DNA of 12,475 bases. It comes from a virus (taxonomy: Duplodnaviria; Heunggongvirae; Uroviricota; Caudoviricetes). Shown here piece by piece: positions 1 to 10,628 of this stretch. The notes under the pieces were generated by a model. It saw nothing but the letters and a program-made list of their open reading frames with translations. It was not told the origin of the DNA and searched no databases. Every line of letters begins with the position of its first letter. The stretch's first letter is position 1. A program made the position numbers and the translations under genes. Where the stretch lies: the IMG/VR virus record IMGVR_UViG_2923286960_000002; one strand, 5' to 3'.

Positions 1-1230
1 ATGAGCAGAGCACTTAACAAACTGAGCGATACACAGCTGAGGAAAATCAACGGCACACCCGCCCAAAAAACAGCCTTTCTTAATGACGGTGGAAACCTGA
101 GCGTCAGGCATTCAACCAGCGGCCTTTTAACCTGGTATTTCACCTACAGGGCCGGAACGGGAAGGGGAGCACGACCGGAACGGATTAAGCTGGGAAATTA
201 TCCTGATCTGAGTCTGAAAGCTGCCAGGGAAAAAGCGGCACAGTGTCGCGCTTGGCTTGCTGAGGGGAAAAATCCACGTCATGAGATGAATTACACCGTA
301 CAGAAAGCGTTAAAGCCCGTAACGGTTGGCGATGCGCTTACCTACTGGCTTGAGTCTTACGTAAAGGAAAACCGCGTGGATTATGCCGCCCTGAAAAAGC
401 GCCTTAATAATCACGTAATACAGCACATTGGTGCTATGCCGCTGGATAAATGCGAGCTACGGCACTGGCTGGCCTGTTTTGACCAGGTGGCAAAGCGAAC
501 GCCTGTTACTGCCGGATTCTTGCTACAGACGTGCAAACAGGCGCTTAAGTTCTGCCGGAGGCGGCGCTATGCAATCAGCAACGTTCTTGATGATATGAGT
601 GTGGCAGACGTTGGGAAAAAACCGGATATAAGCGAGCGTGTCTTAAGCACCAAAGAACTTGGCGAATTATTGCAGGCACTGGACAAAAAAATATTTTCCC
701 CTTACTACGTCGCACTAATCCGCCTCCTGATTGTTTTCGGATGCCGGACGGTAGAACTGAGGTTATCGGAGATCAGCGAGTGGGATTTTACCGAAATGCT
801 CTGGACCGTGCCGAAAGAACACAGCAAAACGAAGGTGGCAATATTCCGGCCCATACCGGAAGCAATACTGCCGTTCGTCACGCAGCTGGTGGAGCAGAAC
901 AGGCACACGGGCTTATTGCTGGGGGAAGTGAAACAGGAAACAAGCGTGTCGCAGTACGGTAGATTAGCGCACAGGAGGCTAAAACACCCTCACTGGTCAC
1001 TGCATGACATCCGGCGCACCTTTACAACGATGCTGAACGATTTAGGCGTGGATCCTCACGTCGTGGAGCAGCTTACAGGTCATCAGATGCCAGGGATGCA
1101 ACGAGTCTATAACCATTCCCGTTATCTGGATGCGAAACGTGACGCGCTGGATATGTGGACGGAGCGGTTAGGGATACTGGCGGGAACACATGAAAACGTA
1201 ACCACATTGCCAATAGCCAGAGAAATATAA
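1..1230 (+). CDS. int: Tyrosine recombinase/integrase, P4 (CP4-57 IntA-like) family
   Basis: 409 aa ORF; C-terminal catalytic region HDIRRTFTTML...LTGHQ...RVYNHSRY matches the R/H-x-x-R/H/Y pattern of P4-type integrases; N-terminal arm-binding-like region. Window starts at its ATG. Confidence 0.93.
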   Translation: MSRALNKLSDTQLRKINGTPAQKTAFLNDGGNLSVRHSTSGLLTWYFTYRAGTGRGARPERIKLGNYPDLSLKAAREKAAQCRAWLAEGKNPRHEMNYTVQKALKPVTVGDALTYWLESYVKENRVDYAALKKRLNNHVIQHIGAMPLDKCELRHWLACFDQVAKRTPVTAGFLLQTCKQALKFCRRRRYAISNVLDDMSVADVGKKPDISERVLSTKELGELLQALDKKIFSPYYVALIRLLIVFGCRTVELRLSEISEWDFTEMLWTVPKEHSKTKVAIFRPIPEAILPFVTQLVEQNRHTGLLLGEVKQETSVSQYGRLAHRRLKHPHWSLHDIRRTFTTMLNDLGVDPHVVEQLTGHQMPGMQRVYNHSRYLDAKRDALDMWTERLGILAGTHENVTTLPIAREI

Positions 1231-1253
1231 TTTTTTTTGCGATTTTTCAGGAT

Positions 1254-1313
1254 GCGGACAACGTGAAACAACGAGACACAACGACGAACAACAAGGAACA
1301 AAATGGAACAACG
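1254..1313. repeat. Six tandem 10-bp units with ACAAC(G) core, one helical turn apart
   Basis: ggacaACG tgaaACAACG agacACAACG acgaACAACA aggaACAAAA tggaACAACG, directly after the int stop codon. Confidence 0.6.
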
Positions 1314-1595
1314 GGTTAAAAATCAGCCATCGTAATAACCATTTGATTTTTATAGGTGTACTGTTTTTTTATACACTGGCGAATCACTCTTAAAAATATG
1401 TAAAAAAGGCGTAAAAGTAAAATTTTATGCCTTTGCATCATAATGAATTAAAAGAGTTTTTATTCTCATTCCCCCTGCTTCTGTAAAACGACCGCCGCCA
1501 GTGTTTGCCATTCCACAAACACCCTGACACAATCCGACACAACCCAACCCAATAATCCACCCAATGACTCTTTAAGAAACAACAAAGGGGGAATT

Positions 1596-1784
1596 GTGTT
1601 AAGCACAGATCGCTTTATACGTGAAAAAGAATGTCAGCAACTTACAGGCCTGAGCCGCTCATGTCGGTACCGCCTGGAAAAAGCCGGACAATTCCCATCA
1701 CGGCGTAAGCTGGGCGGTCGTTCCGTTGGCTGGTCTTTATCCGAAGTTCTGGCATGGAAGGACAGCTGCGAGGCAGTTCACTAA
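1596..1784 (+). CDS. alpA: AlpA-family (excisionase-like) HTH regulator
   Basis: 62 aa, GTG start preceded by AAAGGGGG SD; motif LTGLSRSCRYRLEKAGQFP...KLGGRSVGW typical of the prophage AlpA/Xis-like family; sits just downstream of int as in CP4-57/PICI layouts. Confidence 0.85.
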   Translation: MLSTDRFIREKECQQLTGLSRSCRYRLEKAGQFPSRRKLGGRSVGWSLSEVLAWKDSCEAVH

Positions 1785-1836
1785 TCAGGCTGGCGGCACA
1801 CAGCCGCCACCCATCCACTAATACAGAGATCTAACC

Positions 1837-3129
1837 ATGAATACTGGATATTCTCCCGAACAAGGGCGGGGCTTCGTTCGTCCTGAAAAACAGAATCTGC
1901 AAAATTTTGCCGAAAGTATTCCGGTTATTTCCGGCCTTACTGGCGGGAGTGAAACCAATATTGTTAACGCCAGAGCGTTGCAGATGTTTGATGATAAAAA
2001 GGGAGTAAATTTAACTTACACCCCTGACGGCAATCAGAATATGAGCATTATCTCTGAGTCAGGTTTCTACAAACTAATAAAAACAAAAAGCGCCCCGTTG
2101 CCGGAGCGCCTTTGTGAACAATTAACCTACTGCGCAAAAAATGAATCTGAGCAGTGGGATTATATCAACCATGTGGAGAAGCGCCACAATTGCCGAATAA
2201 CGGGCAAAACAAAGGCCACCCGCTACGGTGGCCCCTCGACACAAGCTACACGTTATCCCCAACGCATGAGCATTGCCAACAATGCCACATTTGCGGCTGG
2301 TGGGCAATGCAATCAGTCTGGTTCAGTTCGTTGCCATACCTGCAATGAGCGCTTTTCCCTGTACTCTTTAAGGAATTGCTCAAGGGCAAAAGCACATGGC
2401 GCGAATCTTTCTGATTCATGCTCTATCTTTCTGCGCCGTCTTTTCCGTGCCGGTGATAATGTTTTGGTCAATTCTTTATCGGTCATTGTGTTGTCCTGCA
2501 TAGCAATGCGCCGTAATACCTTACACCACGGCGCTGATGGTGATTACTCTGGTTCTTTGGCCTTGCGGCGCTGGCGATATTCAACTTCTCGTTTTAATGC
2601 CGCAGTAACAAATTGCCCCGTACTTTCGCCAGGCATTTTTACCGCCTCAACATTGTTCATAACTTCATGCGGAACCCTTGCCGCAACGGTTTGTGATTTT
2701 GCGTTTACTGCTTTTGTCGCCATGTGGTGTACCCCTCATAAAAAACAAATGCAGTATGCAGGAAAAAAAATAAGTGTTCAACACTTGACGTGTTTAACAC
2801 CTGGGTTTAAATTGGTGTTCAACACCTTGTTGGCGCAAGGTGCAGAAACGACGAAACCCGGCAGTGCGCTAACACTAACCGGGCTTCTAACCACCAACGA
2901 TAGCGAAAGTATCGAGGTAGCTATGCGAAATCATACCACACACCCGCAAGGGCGGGACTCGCACAACCTGAATAAATACATCTGGCGTTTTATCGCCCTG
3001 AGCACGGCACAACCGCGCGTGATTACCATTGAGGCCACCAGCGAACAGGAAGCACGCCAGCAATCTCCGGCTGGCTGCGTGATGGTATTCGCTGCCCGTA
3101 TTCGTCAGGAGGTGTGCCATGTGCAATAA
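1837..3129 (+). CDS. Bro-N-like domain ORF (antirepressor-like N-terminus); 3' two-thirds of the frame doubtful, possibly degraded
   Basis: N-terminal ~110 aa resemble the Bro-N domain (NLQNF..., DDKKGV..TPDGNQNMSIISESGFYKLIKTKSAP). From about aa 120 the frame is Cys/Ser/Thr/Arg-rich and poor in Asp/Glu/Lys, and it is antisense to a well-supported RHH gene. No clear SD before the ATG. Confidence 0.4.
   Translation: MNTGYSPEQGRGFVRPEKQNLQNFAESIPVISGLTGGSETNIVNARALQMFDDKKGVNLTYTPDGNQNMSIISESGFYKLIKTKSAPLPERLCEQLTYCAKNESEQWDYINHVEKRHNCRITGKTKATRYGGPSTQATRYPQRMSIANNATFAAGGQCNQSGSVRCHTCNERFSLYSLRNCSRAKAHGANLSDSCSIFLRRLFRAGDNVLVNSLSVIVLSCIAMRRNTLHHGADGDYSGSLALRRWRYSTSRFNAAVTNCPVLSPGIFTASTLFITSCGTLAATVCDFAFTAFVAMWCTPHKKQMQYAGKKISVQHLTCLTPGFKLVFNTLLAQGAETTKPGSALTLTGLLTTNDSESIEVAMRNHTTHPQGRDSHNLNKYIWRFIALSTAQPRVITIEATSEQEARQQSPAGCVMVFAARIRQEVCHVQ
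2313..2501 (-). CDS. Hypothetical small basic protein, second gene of the leftward RHH operon
   Basis: 62 aa, highly charged (KRRRRK), 42 nt downstream of the RHH gene on the same strand; no recognisable fold by eye. Confidence 0.3.
   Translation of the reverse strand: MQDNTMTDKELTKTLSPARKRRRRKIEHESERFAPCAFALEQFLKEYREKRSLQVWQRTEPD
2544..2723 (-). CDS. Ribbon-helix-helix (Arc/CopG/MetJ-like) DNA-binding protein, putative island repressor
   Basis: 59 aa ORF below the track's length cutoff: MATKAVNAKSQTVAARVPHEVMNNVEAVKMPGESTGQFVTAALKREVEYRQRRKAKEPE. Beta-strand/helix/G-x-S-T helix pattern of RHH proteins; GAGGGG SD ~9 nt upstream of ATG; three palindromic operators immediately upstream. Confidence 0.55.
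   Translation of the reverse strand: MATKAVNAKSQTVAARVPHEVMNNVEAVKMPGESTGQFVTAALKREVEYRQRRKAKEPE
2753..2826. promoter_or_regulatory. Divergent promoter/operator switch with three GTGTT-N-AACAC palindromes
   Basis: O1 2774-2784 gtgttcaacac, O2 2790-2800 gtgtttaacac, O3 2815-2825 gtgttcaacac. Rightward promoter TTGACG (2785-2790), 17 nt spacer, TAAATT (2808-2813). Leftward promoter TTGAAC (complement of 2776-2781), 17 nt, CATACT (complement of 2753-2758). O1 overlaps the leftward -35, O2 lies in the rightward spacer, O3 just after the rightward -10. Confidence 0.55.
2923..3129 (+). CDS. Hypothetical 68 aa protein; alternative first gene of the rightward operon (same frame as the 3' end of the 1837 ORF)
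   Basis: ATG at 2923 preceded by GAGGT; lies ~100 nt downstream of the rightward promoter; its stop overlaps the next start (ATGTGCAATAA). Confidence 0.3.
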   Translation: MRNHTTHPQGRDSHNLNKYIWRFIALSTAQPRVITIEATSEQEARQQSPAGCVMVFAARIRQEVCHVQ

Positions 3130-3358
3130 CATCCGTCCGGACGCAGCCGCCGAAGCCATCATAACGCTAATGCACGCGCTGATTGATATTTCTGTTATCG
3201 CAGACATGGCGCATAAGCACGCCACCAGTGAAACAGAATATGCCGGGGCTTTCGTTCCTCATTCGCTGGCGGTTATGCAACTTAGTGCGGATATGGCGCT
3301 GAATGAGGCCAAAGCCATCCTGATTGCTGATTGTGAAAATGGGGGGGGTTATGCGTGA
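3119..3358 (+). CDS. Hypothetical protein (79 aa)
   Basis: ORF translationally coupled to its neighbours; acidic, helical-looking composition; no recognisable family by eye. Confidence 0.5.
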   Translation: MCNNIRPDAAAEAIITLMHALIDISVIADMAHKHATSETEYAGAFVPHSLAVMQLSADMALNEAKAILIADCENGGGYA

Positions 3359-3584
3359 TGATCGTTTTAATTCCCTGAAACAGGAATTTTCCGGCGTTCC
3401 TGATGATGCGGCTGATGCGCTTTCGTCAATGCCAGAACTTATTAGAGCGGCTTTTTTCTTACTTTCCACGAGAGAATATAAATCAACGGGGCTTGATGTA
3501 CTGAATATCGCCGCCGATTATGCGGAATATGTGGCAGAGGCGCGTTACAGAAGAAAATTTCCTGAGGATGTAAGCCATGCGTGA
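3351..3584 (+). CDS. Hypothetical protein (77 aa; start chosen at the ATG behind a G-rich SD)
   Basis: Track ORF begins at 3324, but GGGGGGG at 3341-3347 precedes the ATG at 3351; start overlaps the upstream stop (ATGcgTGA). Confidence 0.5.
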   Translation: MRDDRFNSLKQEFSGVPDDAADALSSMPELIRAAFFLLSTREYKSTGLDVLNIAADYAEYVAEARYRRKFPEDVSHA

Positions 3585-3810
3585 TATTTACCACGAAACA
3601 ATAGACCGCGCATTTCTTGCACTTTCTCACAGTGAAAACATGCTGGAAATATTGCGCATATGGCTTGAAACACTTGGCGACAATGAACGCGACAAACAAA
3701 AATCAAGAATTGCCACGGCATTAATAACGCTTCTTGAGCCTGTAATAATGGAACTGCAAGAAATAGATCTATTGCACGACAGATATAAAGAACAGCACAC
3801 CGGAGAATAA
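3577..3810 (+). CDS. Hypothetical protein (77 aa)
   Basis: Start overlaps the stop of the upstream gene (ATGcgTGA at 3577-3584); protein-like composition. Confidence 0.5.
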   Translation: MRDIYHETIDRAFLALSHSENMLEILRIWLETLGDNERDKQKSRIATALITLLEPVIMELQEIDLLHDRYKEQHTGE

Positions 3811-3815
3811 AAATA

Positions 3816-4115
3816 ATGAAACTTAAATATTCTGGCTTAACTGCCAGTGGCAACACTCACCCTAAATTTACGCGCGGTGATATTTACCGCGACCAGTACG
3901 GCGGCACGGTAATGATTAAGGGCGTGGAAGAACGGCGTGTAACCTACCGCCGTGAAGGTTACGAATATGATTGCGTGATGCCTGTTTATCAGTTCCGGCG
4001 TGATTTTTCTCTGGTACAGACCGCGCCGCATAACGTGCCCACCAGCAACGCCAGGGCACGGGCAAACATCCAGAAGCTGAAAACCATGATTAACGGATTC
4101 AGGGGTAAAAAATGA
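3816..4115 (+). CDS. Hypothetical protein (99 aa), possibly a conserved enterobacterial prophage small protein
   Basis: Motif GDIYRDQYGGTVMIKGVEERRVTYRREGYEYDC; stop overlaps the start of the replication gene (ATGA at 4112-4115). Confidence 0.5.
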   Translation: MKLKYSGLTASGNTHPKFTRGDIYRDQYGGTVMIKGVEERRVTYRREGYEYDCVMPVYQFRRDFSLVQTAPHNVPTSNARARANIQKLKTMINGFRGKK

Positions 4116-5866
4116 AACTGGCACCGAACGTAAAACAGCAGTCACGCGGCATAAAACACAAAGGAACAGAAGTCATTATTTTTGCGGGTAGTGATGCCTG
4201 GGCACACGCGAAACAATGGCAGGAACATGATGCGCGTATGGCCGGAGATAATGAGCCTCCTGTGTGGCTTGGGGAGCAGCAGTTATCAGAACTGGATAAG
4301 CTGCAAATTGTGCCGGAAGGCAGAAAATCCGTGCGCATATTCAGGGCCGGATATCTTGCGCCAGTAATGATAAAGGCGATTGGCCAGAAGCTGGCGGCGG
4401 CAGGCGTACAGGATGCAAATTTTTACCCTGATGGTATGCACGGTCAGAAGGTGGAGAACTGGCGCGAATATCTGGCCCGTGAGCGCCAGAATCTTTCTGA
4501 TGGTCTGGTCATTGAGCTTCCGGTAAAGCAAAAGGCGCAACTTTCGCAGATGGCGGACAGTGAGCGCGCGCAGCTGCTTGCCGATCGCTTTGATGGCGTT
4601 TGCGTACATCCTGAAAGTGAAATCGTTCACGTATGGCGCGGCGGGGTATGGTGTCCGGTCAGCACAATGGAGCTTAGCCGCGAAATGGTGGCGATCTATT
4701 CAGAGCACAGGGCCACTTTCAGCAAGCGCGTAATCAATAACGCCGTGGAAGCGTTAAAAGTTATTGCCGAACCAATGGGCGAGCCGTCCGGCGATTTGCT
4801 GCCGTTCGCCAATGGTGCGCTTGACCTGAAAACGGGGGAATTTTCCCCGCACACGCCGGAGAACTGGATCACCACGCACAACGGCATTGAGTACACGCCA
4901 CCAGCACCCGGGGAGAACATCCGCGATAACGCGCCAAACTTTCATAAATGGCTTGAGCACGCAGCCGGAAAAGACCCGCGCAAGATGATGCGTATATGTG
5001 CCGCGCTGTACATGATTATGGCGAACCGGTACGACTGGCAGATGTTTATTGAGGCCACCGGAGACGGCGGGAGCGGTAAAAGTACATTCACACACATAGC
5101 CAGCCTTCTGGCAGGGAAACAGAACACGGTAAGCGCTGAAATGACATCGCTTGATGATGCTGGTGGACGTGCGCAGGTTGTCGGGAGTCGTCTTATCGTC
5201 CTGGCTGACCAGCCGAAATATACAGGCGAAGGAACGGGCATCAAGAAAATCACAGGCGGCGACCCCGTGGAAGTTAACCCGAAATATGAAAAGCGTTTCA
5301 CGGCGGTAATCAGGGCGGTGGTGCTGGCGACCAACAACAACCCGATGATATTCACCGAACGGGCCGGAGGTGTGGCACGTCGTCGCGTGATTTTCCGTTT
5401 CGACAATATCGTCAGTGAGGCCGACAAAGACAGGGAGCTACCGGAAAAGATTGCGGCTGAAATCCCTGTGATTATCCGCCGATTACTGGCGAACTTTTCC
5501 GCCCCTGAAAAGGCACGGGCTTTACTCATTGAACAGCGTGACGGTGATGAAGCACTGGCGATAAAGCAGCAAACGGATCCGGTTATTGAGTTTTGCCAGT
5601 TCCTGAATTTTCTGGAGGAAGCGCGCGGCCTGATGATGGGGGGCGGTGGCGATTCAGTGAAGTACACGACCAGGAACAGCCTTTACCGCGTCTATCTGGC
5701 GTTTATGGCATACGCAGGCAGGAGCAAACCGCTAAACGTAAATGACTTTGGCAAGGCTATGAAGCCAGCCGCGAAAGTTTACGGACATGAATATATTACG
5801 CGGAAAGTTAAGGGAGTAACGCAGACTAACGCAATAACAACAGACGATTGCGACGCGTTTTTATAA
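4112..5866 (+). CDS. Replication initiator/helicase, P4 alpha C-terminal-like (D5_N + SF3 helicase); PICI Pri-Rep-like
   Basis: 584 aa; Walker A GDGGSGKST near aa 315 followed by a hydrophobic strand ending LIVLAD; overall resemblance to the phage/plasmid primase P4-family C-terminal domain. No TOPRIM or AEP primase motif recognised by eye in the N-terminal 300 aa. Confidence 0.88.
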   Translation: MKLAPNVKQQSRGIKHKGTEVIIFAGSDAWAHAKQWQEHDARMAGDNEPPVWLGEQQLSELDKLQIVPEGRKSVRIFRAGYLAPVMIKAIGQKLAAAGVQDANFYPDGMHGQKVENWREYLARERQNLSDGLVIELPVKQKAQLSQMADSERAQLLADRFDGVCVHPESEIVHVWRGGVWCPVSTMELSREMVAIYSEHRATFSKRVINNAVEALKVIAEPMGEPSGDLLPFANGALDLKTGEFSPHTPENWITTHNGIEYTPPAPGENIRDNAPNFHKWLEHAAGKDPRKMMRICAALYMIMANRYDWQMFIEATGDGGSGKSTFTHIASLLAGKQNTVSAEMTSLDDAGGRAQVVGSRLIVLADQPKYTGEGTGIKKITGGDPVEVNPKYEKRFTAVIRAVVLATNNNPMIFTERAGGVARRRVIFRFDNIVSEADKDRELPEKIAAEIPVIIRRLLANFSAPEKARALLIEQRDGDEALAIKQQTDPVIEFCQFLNFLEEARGLMMGGGGDSVKYTTRNSLYRVYLAFMAYAGRSKPLNVNDFGKAMKPAAKVYGHEYITRKVKGVTQTNAITTDDCDAFL

Positions 5867-5880
5867 TTTTTTGCAATGGC

Positions 5881-6104
5881 TGTCTACCCTGTCTACCTGA
5901 GTAAAGAAAAATACATTTAATTCAGTATATTAACTTAGGTAGACAGCCTTTTTTCACTGTCTACCTACTATCTACCCTCTCTACCTGATTTTACCTGAAT
6001 CAGACAGGGAGGTAGATACGGGGTAGATAGTGGATAAAAGCACTCTACCCCGCTGAAAGCCGCGCCATTACTGGCATGAGAGCCAGTAAGGTAGATAAGG
6101 TAGA
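5881..6104. repeat. Replication origin: about 11 iterons with TCTACC core in both orientations flanking an AT-rich spacer
   Basis: tgTCTACCc (5883), tgTCTACCt (5893), GGTAGAca (5939), TCTACC (5960, 5971, 5980), GGTAGA (6011, 6022), TCTACC (6044), GGTAGA (6090, 6099); AT-rich 5905-5935. Directly downstream of the replication gene, as in SaPI/PICI origins. Confidence 0.75.
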
Positions 6105-6154
6105 CAAGGGGAGGCACAACTCAAAACTTTTTAAACGAGGGGGTAAAAATAAAA

Positions 6155-6412
6155 ATGCGCACATCAGGAAAACTTAATAATCAGAAGAAGCAGCATAACC
6201 GCGCCATTGACCTTACAGAGCACTGGCTGAGAGTGGCGATAAAAATCATCGACCGCAACACGGGGGAAGGATACGCGAAAGCACATCCCGACCTGATAAG
6301 CGCATTCATGACCACGGCGGCGGCAAACTTTGCCACGCTGACAGAACGGGAGATTGCCGAAGCGGAACAGGTAACAACCATCAACGTTAAAACCGGAGAG
6401 GTGGAATCATGA
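6155..6412 (+). CDS. Hypothetical protein (85 aa)
   Basis: Strong SD GAGGGGG upstream; stop overlaps the SSB-like start (ATGA at 6409-6412). Confidence 0.5.
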   Translation: MRTSGKLNNQKKQHNRAIDLTEHWLRVAIKIIDRNTGEGYAKAHPDLISAFMTTAAANFATLTEREIAEAEQVTTINVKTGEVES

Positions 6413-6831
6413 CAGCACAGATAGCAGCTTACGGGCGGCTGGTGGACGACCCGCAGGTAAAACAGACCAGCAAGGGCACACCAATGACGCTGGCACGTAT
6501 GGCGGTCCCCCTTCCGTGCAGCCAGGCAGATGACGGAACGGCGACGATGTGGTTATCCGTCCTGGCATTTGGCAGACAGGCCGAAGCACTGGAAAGGCAC
6601 CGCAAGGGTGAACTCCTGAGCGTGGCGGGTAACATGCAGATCAGCCAGTGGACTGGGCAGAACTGAGAAACGCGGCAGGGCTGGCAGGTTATCGCAGACA
6701 GTGTAATCAGTGCGCGAACGGCGCGACTGGGCGGCAAAAAAGGTCAACAGGGCCAGGCTACTGACGCGCTGAACAGGGCAAAACAACAGGCGGGGAATGA
6801 TGATCCGTACGGGGATAACATACCGTTTTAA
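6409..6831 (+). pseudogene. ssb: SSB-like OB-fold protein interrupted by a single in-frame TGA (6664-6666); nonsense mutation, readthrough or sequencing error
   Basis: N-terminal 85 aa align to the SSB OB fold (YGRLVDDPQVKQTSKG...WLSVLAFGRQAEALERHRKGELLSVAGNMQISQWTGQN). The same frame continues after the TGA for 54 codons and ends in the SSB acidic tip ...DDPYGDNIPF. The TGA sits where SSB has a conserved Gly codon. Confidence 0.7.
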
Positions 6832-6846
6832 GCGACGAGTGACAGA

Positions 6847-6869
6847 AGCCGGAGCAATCCGGCTTTTTT
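6847..6869 (+). terminator. Rho-independent terminator
   Basis: Stem agccgga/tccggct, loop gcaa, followed by a T run. Confidence 0.6.
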
Positions 6870-6917
6870 ACGGGTCCTCCTGGCGGGGTGGGCCTGAACA
6901 CGGGGCGGGAGGCGCGG
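6869..6917 (+). other. Degenerate cos-like sequence, paralogous to the cos at 9311-9360
   Basis: tacgggtcctcctgg...acggggcgggaggcgcgg parallels tacgggtcctttccgg...acggggcggcgacctcgcgg, but the cohesive-end core is altered. Confidence 0.45.
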
Positions 6918-7044
6918 AAAAAAGCGCATTTTTGTGATTTTATCGTCATCATCATCATGAGCGTAATTTATTGTTTTTAATTGTTTTGATGCAAAAAAGA
7001 TGATGGTTATGGTTAATTTTTGTTCGACATCTTTGCAGGCAGAT

Positions 7045-7085
7045 AAAAAAGCCCGATAAGGTCAGAGGTGGCTTATCGGGCTTTT
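7045..7085. terminator. Bidirectional hairpin terminator
   Basis: Perfect 10-bp stem gcccgataag/cttatcgggc with 11-nt loop, A run upstream and T run downstream. Confidence 0.5.
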
Positions 7086-7161
7086 GCATATGAGGCTTTT
7101 TGGTGCACTGACACACATGATCGGGATAATCATTTCATAATTTGCAACACAACTCAATATC

Positions 7162-7211
7162 ATTGCACAAAATGCAATCATGATTATAATCAGAGCTGGA
7201 TGAACATCCAG
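7162..7211 (+). promoter_or_regulatory. Head-operon promoter with overlapping palindromes
   Basis: -35 TTGCAC (7163-7168), 16 nt spacer, perfect -10 TATAAT (7185-7190); palindrome ATTGCAcaaaaTGCAAT (7162-7178) over the -35 and perfect 16-bp palindrome CTGGATGAACATCCAG (7196-7211) near +1. Confidence 0.5.
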
Positions 7212-7246
7212 TTATGATTTTTTAAGTCGAAGAGGAATTTCTTACT

Positions 7247-7453
7247 ATGGCTGAAGAGAAAAAAGGCGGTGTTTCGGTGTACATAAGCCCCGAAATCGTG
7301 GAGGTGCTCAAGCAGCGCCACAAAAAAAACTATGAGGCTGGCGTGGCGGCTGGACTGGATCCGCTGATGACGCCGGAGCCGTCGATAGGTTCACTTGTAC
7401 GCTCTTATTTACTTGCGGCGCTTGGGATGCATAAAAATTATGGGGGTGAATAA
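7247..7453 (+). CDS. Hypothetical protein (68 aa), first gene of the head operon
   Basis: SD GAGGA upstream; stop overlaps the capsid gene start (TAATG); no recognisable family by eye. Confidence 0.5.
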   Translation: MAEEKKGGVSVYISPEIVEVLKQRHKKNYEAGVAAGLDPLMTPEPSIGSLVRSYLLAALGMHKNYGGE

Positions 7454-8508
7454 TGGCAGGAAAAGCAACGGCACTTAACACTAACCAGCTTTTCATGTAC
7501 CTGAATCGCGGGGATATTGCGGATTTTAAATTCAGCCCTCTGTTTACCACGCTGTTTTTCCCGAACGTGGCGACATTCAGCACGCAAAACATCATGCTGG
7601 ATACCCTGGACATTGAAGAAGTCACCATGTCGGCGTTTTGTTCGCCTATGGTGGGTAGCCAGGTTCAGCGCGATAAAGGGTACGAAACCAGCACGATTAA
7701 ACCTGGCTACATGAAGCCAAAGCACGAAATCGATCCAACGAAAACCATCATGCGCATGGCTGGAGAAGATCCGGCACAGCTTAACGACCCTACCTATCGC
7801 CGTATGCGCCTGATTACTGGCAATATGCGCCGCCAGATAAACGCCATAAAAGCGCGCGTGGAATGGCTGGCGGTAAATGCGGTAACGACCGGAAAAAACA
7901 TCATTGAGGGCGAAGGCATAGAGCGCTATGAAATCGACTGGAAGATCCCAAGTAAAAATATCGCCAGACAGGGACATGGCAAAAAGTGGTCAGAGGCAGA
8001 TAAGGAAACACACGATCCAATCTATGACATTGAGCTATACGCAGATCAGGCAGGTTGCCCCGCAAACGTCATGATTATGGGCGTTGATGTATGGCGCATG
8101 TTACGCAGCTTTAAAAAATTCCGTGAACTGTACGATCTCTCCCGTGGTTCAGAATCCGCCGCAGAGCTGGCATGTAAAAACCTGGGCGAAGTGGTGAGCT
8201 TTAAAGGCTATCTTGGTGATCTGGCCCTTATCGTCTATTCCGGCAAATACACTGACAGCGACGGCACAGAAAAATATTTCCTTGAGCCTGATTTGCTTGT
8301 CCTGGGCAACACCAACAATAAAGGGCTGGTGGCCTATGGTGCGATTATGGATCAGGACGCAGTAAGAACGGGGGCAACGCAAAACATGTACTACCCGAAA
8401 AACTGGATTGAGGACGGAGATCCGGCGATTGAGTACGTGCAGACGCACAGCGCACCGCAGCCGGTTCCGGCAGATATTCGCAAATTTGTTACTGTCAAAA
8501 TTGCTTAA
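7453..8508 (+). CDS. Major capsid protein, lambda gpE family
   Basis: 351 aa; conserved blocks shared with lambda gpE as recalled: FKFSPLF..LFF, PGYMKPKHE, EDPAQLNDPTYRR, WSEADKETHDP, VSFKGYLGD.A.IVYSG.Y, LVLGNT, YPKNW...GDPA, SAP. Confidence 0.92.
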   Translation: MAGKATALNTNQLFMYLNRGDIADFKFSPLFTTLFFPNVATFSTQNIMLDTLDIEEVTMSAFCSPMVGSQVQRDKGYETSTIKPGYMKPKHEIDPTKTIMRMAGEDPAQLNDPTYRRMRLITGNMRRQINAIKARVEWLAVNAVTTGKNIIEGEGIERYEIDWKIPSKNIARQGHGKKWSEADKETHDPIYDIELYADQAGCPANVMIMGVDVWRMLRSFKKFRELYDLSRGSESAAELACKNLGEVVSFKGYLGDLALIVYSGKYTDSDGTEKYFLEPDLLVLGNTNNKGLVAYGAIMDQDAVRTGATQNMYYPKNWIEDGDPAIEYVQTHSAPQPVPADIRKFVTVKIA

Positions 8509-8519
8509 CGGGGGATTCT

Positions 8520-8855
8520 ATGGACACTCCATACATTGAGTTATTTGCAGGCAGTCAGCAGGTCGCCACGACGCTGGTACATTTTGCCGCTGATGCTGGC
8601 GTTATTCAGGAATTTACCCCGCTGATGCTGGCGGACAATGGCGAGTTTAAGCCGTGGGATGGTCAGGAATCTGGCAAGGCTGTTTATCTGACTTCGTATC
8701 CTGTGGACACGTCAAAGCAGAAATCAGCACAGTGTTACAAGACGGGGATATTCAATATTGCCGCCGTTAACTGGCCTGAGAGCGTCGACACCGATGCGAA
8801 AAAATGCGCCGCCTTTGCGGGTTCCGGCGTATCCGTTCAGCCGCTGGCCCGATAA
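8520..8855 (+). CDS. Head decoration protein, lambda gpD-like
   Basis: 111 aa; TPLMLADNGEFKPWDG..., YKTGIFNIAAVNWPESVDTDAKKCAAFAGSGVSV parallels lambda gpD TPLMLDTSSRKLVAWDG..., YKSGTF.YEDVLWPEA..DETKKRTAFAGTAISIV. Confidence 0.85.
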   Translation: MDTPYIELFAGSQQVATTLVHFAADAGVIQEFTPLMLADNGEFKPWDGQESGKAVYLTSYPVDTSKQKSAQCYKTGIFNIAAVNWPESVDTDAKKCAAFAGSGVSVQPLAR

Positions 8856-8867
8856 GCAGGGGGAACG

Positions 8868-9281
8868 ATGGCAACGAATGAAAGCATCATGACGCTACCG
8901 CTGGCGAGTAAATTTAAAGCCGAAGCGCGGGCAATGGCTGACAGAGGTTTATCAACCTATGAGGCCGTATATCAACTAAACAAACTGGAAGAGCAGGACA
9001 AGCCGCGCGCTGATGCGATTATGGCGCTTCATGAGCATAAAGACTATCAGCCGCTGTTACGTGCAATGGCAAACGTGCCATGTATTAGCGTCGATAATGC
9101 TCGTGAAATCCTGAACATGACCATAGAGCAGGAGCGCCCAAAGGTTGCACCAGAGCTTACCGCAGCCTTTGAAAACTTTATGGACATGCACAGCCCGCAA
9201 GCCGTATCAGCTGGCATGGCATACGATGGCAGAAACCAGGGCGATGACGGCGACATCGATCGCATACTGAAAACCATCTGA
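8868..9281 (+). CDS. Hypothetical protein (137 aa), last gene of the head operon
   Basis: Good SD and protein-like composition; position analogous to lambda FI but no similarity recognised by eye. Confidence 0.5.
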   Translation: MATNESIMTLPLASKFKAEARAMADRGLSTYEAVYQLNKLEEQDKPRADAIMALHEHKDYQPLLRAMANVPCISVDNAREILNMTIEQERPKVAPELTAAFENFMDMHSPQAVSAGMAYDGRNQGDDGDIDRILKTI

Positions 9282-9286
9282 GACAA

Positions 9287-9311
9287 GGCCGGAGAAATCC
9301 GGCTTTTTTTT
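9287..9311 (+). terminator. Rho-independent terminator
   Basis: Stem gccgga/tccggc with gaaa loop followed by T8; near-identical to the hairpin at 6847-6869. Confidence 0.6.
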
Positions 9312-9392
9312 ACGGGTCCTTTCCGGCATATGGACCCGTTACGGGGCGGCGACCTCGCGGGTTTTCGCTATTTATGACGTTTTTCCGTGAAG
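9311..9392 (+). other. Lambda-type cos site (cos1): cosQ/cosN plus a short cosB-like segment
   Basis: tacgggtcctttccgg...ccgttacg | GGGCGGCGACCT (9344-9355) CGCGGGTTTTCGCTATTTATGA matches the lambda right-end/left-end junction as recalled, with the 12-nt cohesive end identical; followed by an R3-like cgtttttccgtg. Lies ~90 bp upstream of the Nu1-like gene. Confidence 0.85.
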
Positions 9393-9444
9393 GTGACACC
9401 ACCACCACTTGATTAATATTTAACCATGCAGTTAAGGTAACATT

Positions 9445-9885
9445 ATGATTGATAAAGCTTGTTTTGTAAGTCAGCAGGAAATAGCTGAACATTTCAAGGT
9501 TAACAGAACCACTATTCGCGCATGGACCAAACAGGGGATGCCGTATCTTAATGCGGATCGCGGAAAGTCTGGCGGTTATCACATCGGGCATACATTGCTT
9601 TGGTCTTCAGGTAAAAGCCGTCTTGAGGCCATCAGATATCACGTAGAAACCAGTGTGCTGGAAAAAATTATGTTTGCCAGGCTGCTTTCATCTGAGCGTG
9701 ACGAGTACTCCAGTGAAGAAACAGAACATAGATTTGATGAAGGTTTACAGATTTACGGCTACTCACCGGAAGAAGTGAGCAAAGCGCGAAATAAAATGGC
9801 CGGCTTTCTGGCTGGGTGGCGTCATGCCGTAAGCGTTCGCCGTGCCAGCATGGAACAATCAGTCGTTACAGAACAGCAAAGTTAA
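9445..9885 (+). CDS. Nu1-like HTH protein: small terminase subunit or TerS-mimicking packaging redirector (Rpp-like)
   Basis: 146 aa; N-terminus FVSQQEIAEHFKVNRTTIRAWTKQGMPYL..GKSGGYHIGHTLLW resembles the lambda Nu1 winged-HTH DNA-binding domain (QLADIFGASIRTIQNWQEQGMPVL...); SD AAGGT upstream. Confidence 0.75.
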   Translation: MIDKACFVSQQEIAEHFKVNRTTIRAWTKQGMPYLNADRGKSGGYHIGHTLLWSSGKSRLEAIRYHVETSVLEKIMFARLLSSERDEYSSEETEHRFDEGLQIYGYSPEEVSKARNKMAGFLAGWRHAVSVRRASMEQSVVTEQQS

Positions 9886-9914
9886 AAATCACTTTCTGTT
9901 ACGCCATCAAATAC

Positions 9915-10011
9915 GCAATACAACAACCACGTATTTTTTTAAAACTATTTGATTCAATTAGCATTTTTTTATTTTTAGCATCAAAAAAACACTATCAGGT
10001 TGTTGTATTGC
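9915..10011. repeat. 14-bp perfect inverted repeat flanking a 69-bp AT-rich segment (candidate cosB with TerS R-sites and a bend site)
   Basis: GCAATACAACAACC at 9915-9928 and GGTTGTTGTATTGC at 9998-10011; the intervening sequence is AT-rich with an IHF-like aATCAAatagTTt on the bottom strand. Confidence 0.5.
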
Positions 10012-10079
10012 TCTTTATTTTTACTTAGTTATCAAATGGATATGACAAACAATTAAACAACAACCTCCCTCTAAAAAAG

Positions 10080-10150
10080 CTCATAAATAGCGAAAAACCG
10101 CGAGGTCGCCGCCCCGTAACGGGCCATAATTCCAGGAAGGACCCGACGAC
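10080..10150 (-). other. Second lambda-type cos site (cos2), inverted relative to cos1
   Basis: Reverse complement reads cgggtccttcctgg...ggcccgttacg GGGCGGCGACCT CGCGGTTTTTCGCTATTTATGAG (12-mer at complement of 10103-10114), near-identical to cos1 over ~45 bp. Confidence 0.8.
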
Positions 10151-10178
10151 ACCAGACTATCAGAACGATGGGGGCACA

Positions 10179-10460
10179 ATGACAGAAGCCGAAATACTGC
10201 GATTAATCCGCCGCGTTGCCGGAATCAGCCAGCAGGCCGACGAACAGACCACGCAGCCGGACAGCGTGACCGCCGAAAATTATGTTCGTGTGGTTGCTGA
10301 GATGATTCGCCGTAATGGTATCCAGCTTAATGATGTGGATATGCGCAACATACGGATCCGCGTTCTTGAAATGCTGGCCTACAATCGCCGCGTGGCACTG
10401 TATCGGGAAACGGAGAAAATTACGTACCACTGGAAGAAGCCGGAGCGGTTGCGGCGGTAA
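10179..10460 (+). CDS. Hypothetical protein (93 aa)
   Basis: ATG preceded by GGGGG SD; charged, helical-looking composition; no family recognised by eye. Confidence 0.45.
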   Translation: MTEAEILRLIRRVAGISQQADEQTTQPDSVTAENYVRVVAEMIRRNGIQLNDVDMRNIRIRVLEMLAYNRRVALYRETEKITYHWKKPERLRR

Positions 10461-10628
10461 CTGGTTGATATTTTCGAAATTCGCCAGCGGCGAACATCGG
10501 GGAAACCAGCCTAACCCGTTGATATTTTCGGGAACCTCAAATTGAGGAGGTCGGAAACATAACCCGTCATATTCTGGATGCTGATAATTACCACGCAGCC
10601 CATTAAGGCCTAACCCGTTGATTCTTCC
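10458..10628. repeat. Four direct repeats with TAACCCGTTGAT-like core at ~50-bp spacing
   Basis: taactggttgatattttcg (10458), taacccgttgatattttcg (10512), taacccgtcatattctgg (10560), taacccgttgattcttcc (10611). Confidence 0.55.

Follow-up and report, generated by a model that had tools for sequence, protein, structure and literature searches.

EcCICFT073, the prototype Gram-negative PICI, is mobilized by lambda and phi80, and in PICIs the origin directly follows pri-rep on its 3' side (PMC6092414). The ssb gene of EcCICFT073-type islands is not mentioned in PMC6092414 or PMC6739421, and our literature search found no study of this gene. The sequence analyzed here, a stretch of 12,475 nt referred to below as the window, is an island of this type located between roxA and phoQ of NCTC 86 / NRRL B-2207; NCTC 86 is the E. 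coli strain of Escherich from 1885, and its genome has been described (PMC5382810). The accessory ssb gene of this island is interrupted by an in-frame TGA. The mutation is real and single, it is confined to one strain, and it arose from an intact allele that is very common. We consider it very probable that this is a recent loss-of-function allele, that is, a unitary pseudogene in one strain, the function lost being itself presumed. The pseudogene status as such is already known, the gene being listed as pseudo in RefSeq and as a "fragment" in GenBank.

Island context and the replication module

The island of CFT073, at the same roxA-phoQ site, aligns with the window at 92% coverage and 96.5% identity. 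Compared against the PICI features described in PMC6092414 and PMC6739421, the window was found to hold an Int gene (1-1230), an AlpA-type HTH gene, a D5_N primase, iterons, genes for Phage_cap_E and HDPD proteins, and one for a TerS-like HTH (Rpp-type) protein of 146 aa. Homologues of c1499 (capsid-like) and c1500 (decoration) are encoded in the island, together with an Icd-like gene and small ORFs. The replication module runs in the order primase, putative iteron origin, small 85-aa ORF, ssb, and terminator-like hairpin, with the following features:

4112-5866, plus strand: primase/helicase gene pri-rep, with D5_N, DUF5906, and Pox_D5 domains
5881-6106, both orientations: ten iterons of the TGTCTACC type, directly 3' of the primase gene
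6155-6412, plus strand: 85-aa ORF 5' of ssb, phrog_1231, function unknown, its stop overlapping the SSB start (ATGA)
6395-6401, plus strand: Shine-Dalgarno sequence GGAGAGG, 7 nt 5' of the SSB ATG (read from the sequence)
6409-6831, plus strand: SSB pseudogene of 140 codons with an internal stop at codon 86 (PF00436, TIGR00621, RefSeq annotation)
6409-6666, plus strand: truncated ORF of 85 aa, comprising OB strands 1-4 and the helix and ending in a hairpin turn
6664-6666, plus strand: premature TGA, with T6664 in place of the G of the ancestral GGA (Gly86) (GmF052 comparison, 61-mers)
6667-6831, plus strand: untranslated remainder past the stop, comprising the last OB strand (88-101), a disordered linker (104-135), the DNIPF tip, and TAA
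6846-6869, plus strand: terminator-like hairpin, AAGCCGGA-GCAA-TCCGGCTT followed by a T run (read from the sequence)

Iterons of the TGTCTACC type, allowing at most one mismatch, occur 14 times in the window against 5.5 expected, and the ten within 5881-6106 form a long imperfect palindrome. This region is the probable replication origin of the island. An Rfam match to a miRNA precursor on both strands of 5945-6042 was discarded as a spurious product of the iteron palindrome. On the other side of ssb lies a non-coding stretch of 415 nt (6832-7246), where EcCICFT073 has a PerC-family gene.

Elsewhere in the window, a 430-aa ORF opening with ATG (1837-3129) is split by PGAP into three features, namely a partial BRO-N pseudogene, an opposite-strand YlcI/YnfO (2544-2723), and a 68-aa Icd-like gene. 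Matches to this ORF were confined to its last 90 residues (phrog_6196) and to a short part of the N-terminus that resembles Ant, and what survives here seems to be part of a former immI-type (ant/icd) module. On the minus strand, the segment 2850-2922, immediately upstream of the Icd-like gene, was weakly matched in Rfam by the antitoxin RNA SymR (33.3 bits, E = 0.004); the score is below the gathering threshold of 61, and the match may be due to chance. A G8 homopolymer (3341-3348) sits at the junction of ORFs 3119-3358 and 3351-3584. The same run is G9 in the nearest island, that of GmF052 (NZ_CM183655), and in one Logan contig, giving an upstream ORF of 86 aa, and G7 in three Logan contigs, where the ORFs are fused (154 aa); these differences in length could reflect slippage-driven variation or sequencing error in noisy assemblies. 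SNPs relative to GmF052 are densely clustered at 9656-10549, across the Rpp-like gene (9445-9885) and the next ORF (10179-10460), which indicates a putative recombination patch in the packaging-redirection module.

An in-frame TGA at codon 86 of ssb

Translation of the plus strand from the ATG at 6409 gives 85 aa, a stop at codon 86 (TGA, 6664-6666), and then 54 further codons to ...NDDPYGDNIPF and the TAA at 6829-6831. An earlier reading made from the sequence alone (hereafter, the sequence-only reading) had described an SSB homologue split by one TGA with its DNIPF end preserved downstream, and its ATG, TGA, 54-codon continuation, and DNIPF end are all correct. Taken alone, the 54 open codons carry no significance, as 11% of shuffles of the same 162 nt stay open. 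The 165 nt downstream of the TGA are identical to the intact alleles of ATCC 25922 and GmF052, and 6409-6831 is thus one gene.

The ATGA overlap between the upstream 85-aa ORF and ssb suggests that the two may be translationally coupled. The hairpin at 6846-6869, which was not among the results of a terminator consensus scan, begins 15 nt past the SSB TAA, and ssb is predicted to be the last gene in its transcription unit. With a terminator at this place, no polar effect of the premature stop on downstream genes would be expected.

The stop is genuine and private to one strain

Four complete RefSeq chromosomes, assembled independently, contain the window at 100% identity, one from B-2207 (NZ_CP117959) and three from NCTC 86 (NZ_LR217818, NZ_LT601384, NZ_OZ489144.2). 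In all four, PGAP/RefSeq annotates 6409-6831 as 'single-stranded DNA-binding protein', pseudo, with 'internal stop', and the GenBank protein SCA71246.1 (NCTC86EC) is the exact 85-aa product, named 'Single-stranded DNA-binding protein (fragment)'. The T is also carried by two further GenBank drafts and many Logan assemblies of separate runs, and the exact 85-aa product was found on 52 contigs (76 index blocks) of a public assembly collection. The sequence-only reading had allowed for a sequencing error at 6664, a suggestion that does not survive the finding of T in four independent complete assemblies and in dozens of public read-set assemblies. That the true base is G, and the T a fault of sequencing or assembly, is extremely improbable: complete assemblies from different projects, drafts, and Logan runs agree, the change is a substitution rather than a homopolymer indel, and a single erroneous reference cannot account for de novo assemblies.

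The many "metagenome" contigs bearing the exact 85-aa product suggested that the TGA allele circulates in natural populations. This idea was rejected, as all such contigs inspected are at least 99.88% identical to the island, with differences that are mostly homopolymer indels, and B-2207 is a strain of the ZymoBIOMICS Gut Microbiome Standard; the contigs likely represent resequencing of that standard. B-2207 is identical to NCTC 86 over the 12.5-kb window, private TGA included, and both names probably denote one strain kept in different collections.

The ancestral state of the codon is clear from its homologues. Codon 86 reads GGA in three strains (ATCC 25922, Nissle, GmF052) and GGC in a fourth, strain 143, and at least 90% of 72 family members have Gly at this position. 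Both facts uphold the proposal that a single substitution changed GGA to TGA at a conserved Gly codon. The primase, capsid, and upstream proteins of the GmF052 island are the same as those of the window. The two islands differ at seven positions over 1-9430, and within ssb at 6664 alone, where GmF052 has G. A 61-mer centered on codon 86 and carrying TGA was matched exactly by four of 1007 matching genomes, all NCTC 86 / B-2207, while its GGA counterpart was matched exactly by 144 complete genomes. The corresponding identity bands, 4/147/813/43 for TGA and 144/68/795/0 for GGA, fit every other genome being one mismatch nearer to GGA. The exact repaired 140-aa protein occurs on at least 1000 public contigs.

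The allele thus has one disabling change, a background of intact alleles, and a restricted distribution, as is expected of a recent unitary pseudogene. Since nothing has changed downstream of the stop, the mutation must be very recent. Very recent inactivation was among the possibilities raised from the sequence alone, and it is the one that a single G-to-T change in one strain only, free of downstream decay, speaks for.

Family membership of the intact protein

When Gly is put back at codon 86, the resulting protein of 140 aa scored 55.9 bits against the Pfam SSB family PF00436 (cutoff 26) and 59.4 bits against TIGR00621 (cutoff 53.95), and it also matched solved bacterial SSBs, the best being 1z9f (E = 4e-11). 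Its structure was assessed on an AF2 model of an intact relative (P0001) that is 99% identical (M47T). The model has a mean pLDDT of 72.5, with 77-91 in the folded part, and comprises strands at residues 2-11, 16-19, 25-36, 44-54, 69-82, and 88-101, a helix at 55-62, and disorder from residue 104 to the end (pLDDT below 50 for 104-120 and 125-140). The top 50 PDB matches returned by Foldseek were all SSB OB domains, with E-values down to 3e-9 and alignments covering about 100-110 residues. The model shows a five-stranded OB-fold barrel with one helix, followed by a disordered linker and an IPF tip; in the window, linker and tip both lie 3' of the stop, the last barrel strand is missing from the product, and the full-length frame is interrupted by the TGA at codon 86.

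Conservation across the family extends to the part beyond the stop. Among 72 members, I138, P139, and F140 of the tip are conserved in at least 90% and D136 is invariant; members range from 117 to 149 aa, with linkers that vary in length. Purifying selection acts on the intact alleles, with dN/dS at 0.14 over the whole gene and 0.04 over codons 87-140, and DNA-level matches to the family were found in 1720 of 5426 complete E. coli genomes. Among PHROGs, the SSB falls in phrog_44. A phage origin of ssb was considered and not adopted, as a tblastn search of 50,697 INPHARED phage records gave nothing at 1e-10, although phrog_44 does contain the protein.

Some further observations concern how copies of this gene appear in databases. 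The 71-aa phrog_28350, of unknown function, corresponds to residues 71-140 of the SSB (window positions ~6619-6831; E = 8e-45), and it seems that some (pro)phage records list split or 5'-truncated ssb copies as proteins in their own right. Most short "partial" proteins of the SSB cluster are artefacts of contigs that end in a repeated gene. The 3' part of ssb that encodes linker and tip (6713-6831) is a mosaic junction, and many E. coli homologues lose their match at ~6713, 6737, 6791, or 6831.

The stop falls inside the OB domain

In E. coli SSB, the residue that aligns with Gly86 is the Gly of 'WTDQSGQDR', in the L45 hairpin, and codon 86 sits in the turn that joins the last two OB strands of the model. 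The OB fold had been taken to end at the TGA, but the domain runs to about residue 101 and the stop precedes its last strand (88-101). According to the model, the 85-aa product lacks this last strand of 14 residues, the disordered linker, and the IPF tip. Such a fragment is probably unstable, and it would be unable to close the OB barrel, to form an SSB tetramer, or to bind partners.

It had also been suggested that an OB-fold protein without its tail could disturb the replication of host or helper. The premise fails, given that the TGA interrupts the OB domain itself and leaves a broken domain deprived of its last strand, and interference of the 85-aa product with host or helper replication appears unlikely from the model. 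In its strongest form, in which the fragment acts as a dominant-negative subunit that poisons the SSB tetramers of host or helper phage, the idea can draw on the start codon, the Shine-Dalgarno sequence, and the coupling to the upstream ORF, all of which are retained, and on the presence in the fragment of equivalents of W54, F60, and W88 of E. coli SSB. We nonetheless regard an active fragment of this kind as having a very small probability. The dominant-negative SSBs that are known have lost nothing but the tip and retain an entire OB core, while here the final strand of the barrel is absent and the fragment alone scores 38.5 bits against TIGR00621, under the cutoff of 53.95. In addition, an identity of 29% to the host SSB makes mixed tetramers unlikely, and the allele is private to one strain with no indication of selection.

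Readthrough, recoding, and re-initiation

A second route by which the interrupted gene might retain a role is suppression of the stop itself. The 81 nt around and after the UGA have a minimum free energy of -22.8 kcal/mol, which is unexceptional against shuffles (z = 0.56), and an Rfam scan returned nothing in the region of the UGA. The base at +4 is G, which is not among the weak RF2 contexts. Nor is the stop conserved, as programmed readthrough would lead one to expect: the four genomes with TGA, out of 1007, all belong to one strain, in a family with Gly in at least 90% of members. Low-level readthrough, which had been put forward as one possibility, thus finds no feature in its favor in the UGA, its +4 base, or the surrounding structure. 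Separate expression of the tail by re-initiation was ruled out, as no in-frame ATG, GTG, or TTG occurs downstream of the stop.

UGA is the leakiest stop codon of E. coli, with readthrough in a K-12 reporter of ~2% at 37 C and ~4% at 25 C (PMC10570021). A background leak of a few percent at most, giving traces of full-length G86W protein, is possible. That insertion of Trp by tRNA-Trp yields, besides the 85-aa fragment, enough SSB(G86W) to be functionally relevant is quite unlikely, even though the downstream frame is fully intact and the model places position 86 in a hairpin turn at the surface, a site that might accept Trp. The recency of the mutation explains the intact frame, with zero substitutions relative to GmF052 and ATCC 25922, and the rarity of the UGA and the lack of downstream structure count against any relevant leak. 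The reporter values, moreover, come from K-12, whose RF2 terminates unusually poorly, and SSB is a high-copy tetramer, of which a few percent of monomers would yield very little functional protein.

A broader proposal, in which readthrough sets a condition-dependent mixture of truncated and full-length forms (with more of the latter at low temperature or under stress) or the 85-aa product acts against helper-phage replication, is in our judgment very unlikely. Programmed recoding of the UGA as selenocysteine is vanishingly improbable; the codon is indeed an in-frame UGA, but there is no stable hairpin at the required downstream position and no Rfam match, and homologues carry Gly (GGA/GGC) at this place, neither Cys nor UGA.

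A probable natural ssb-null island

In the explanation that we favor, recent loss of function, a G-to-T transversion has converted Gly86 (GGA) into a UGA stop in an accessory SSB gene of an EcCICFT073-type PICI, and translation would now give an 85-aa fragment that is probably degraded. The intact SSB would coat single-stranded DNA during replication of the island from the adjacent iteron origin, its IPF tip presumably recruiting host replication and repair proteins, as for E. coli SSB. Loss of such a protein may be tolerated in two ways: host SSB could coat the island DNA, and a silent integrated island would be free of selection between inductions.

A single nonsense mutation in one culture-collection strain is by itself of low interest. 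If the explanation is correct, however, the strain is a natural knockout, which would imply that the satellite SSB is dispensable for keeping the island; this version of the finding is weaker but more likely than those that invoke readthrough or activity of the fragment. NCTC 86 would then provide a natural ssb-null EcCICFT073-type island, with GmF052 as its near-isogenic intact counterpart. The satellite SSB family is widespread and so far unstudied, and for it the comparison of NCTC 86 with GmF052 is ready-made. T6664 is, in addition, a convenient strain marker, as NCTC 86 / B-2207 is both a reference strain and a widely used mock-community member.

Comparison with known systems

One of the systems considered here is the chromosomal SSB of E. 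coli (1EYG, 1EQQ), which shares with the window SSB the OB fold, the Gly of the L45 hairpin, a disordered linker, and a C-terminal IPF. W54, F60, and W88 of the E. coli protein have equivalents in the window SSB, whereas W40 has none. The two are 29% identical, and the window SSB is shorter (140 against 178 aa), has a much shorter linker, and is encoded, in interrupted form, on a satellite island. The sequence-only reading had called the C-terminus a canonical acidic tip; the IPF-type end is there, but DDPYGDNIPF is less acidic than the MDFDDDIPF of E. coli SSB (DNIPF against DDDIPF at the very end).

The tail-less E. coli proteins SSB-deltaC8 and ssb-113 resemble the 85-aa fragment in having no functional C-terminal tip. 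They possess a complete OB core and still form tetramers, and are dominant for that reason; unlike them, the fragment loses part of the core.

The SSB of EcCICFT073 (WP_000126698.1) has the same position in the island, the same chromosomal site, the same OB domain, and the same DDPYGD-x-IPF tip. It differs in being intact, in its length of 136 aa and its divergent linker, and in being followed by the PerC-family gene that is absent from the window. An intact allele of the window gene encodes WP_000126681.1, the SSB of ATCC 25922, Nissle 1917, and GmF052, the last of these on an island of the same type at the same roxA-phoQ site. All residues of this protein are identical to those encoded in the window except at codon 86, which is GGA for Gly in these strains and TGA in the window.
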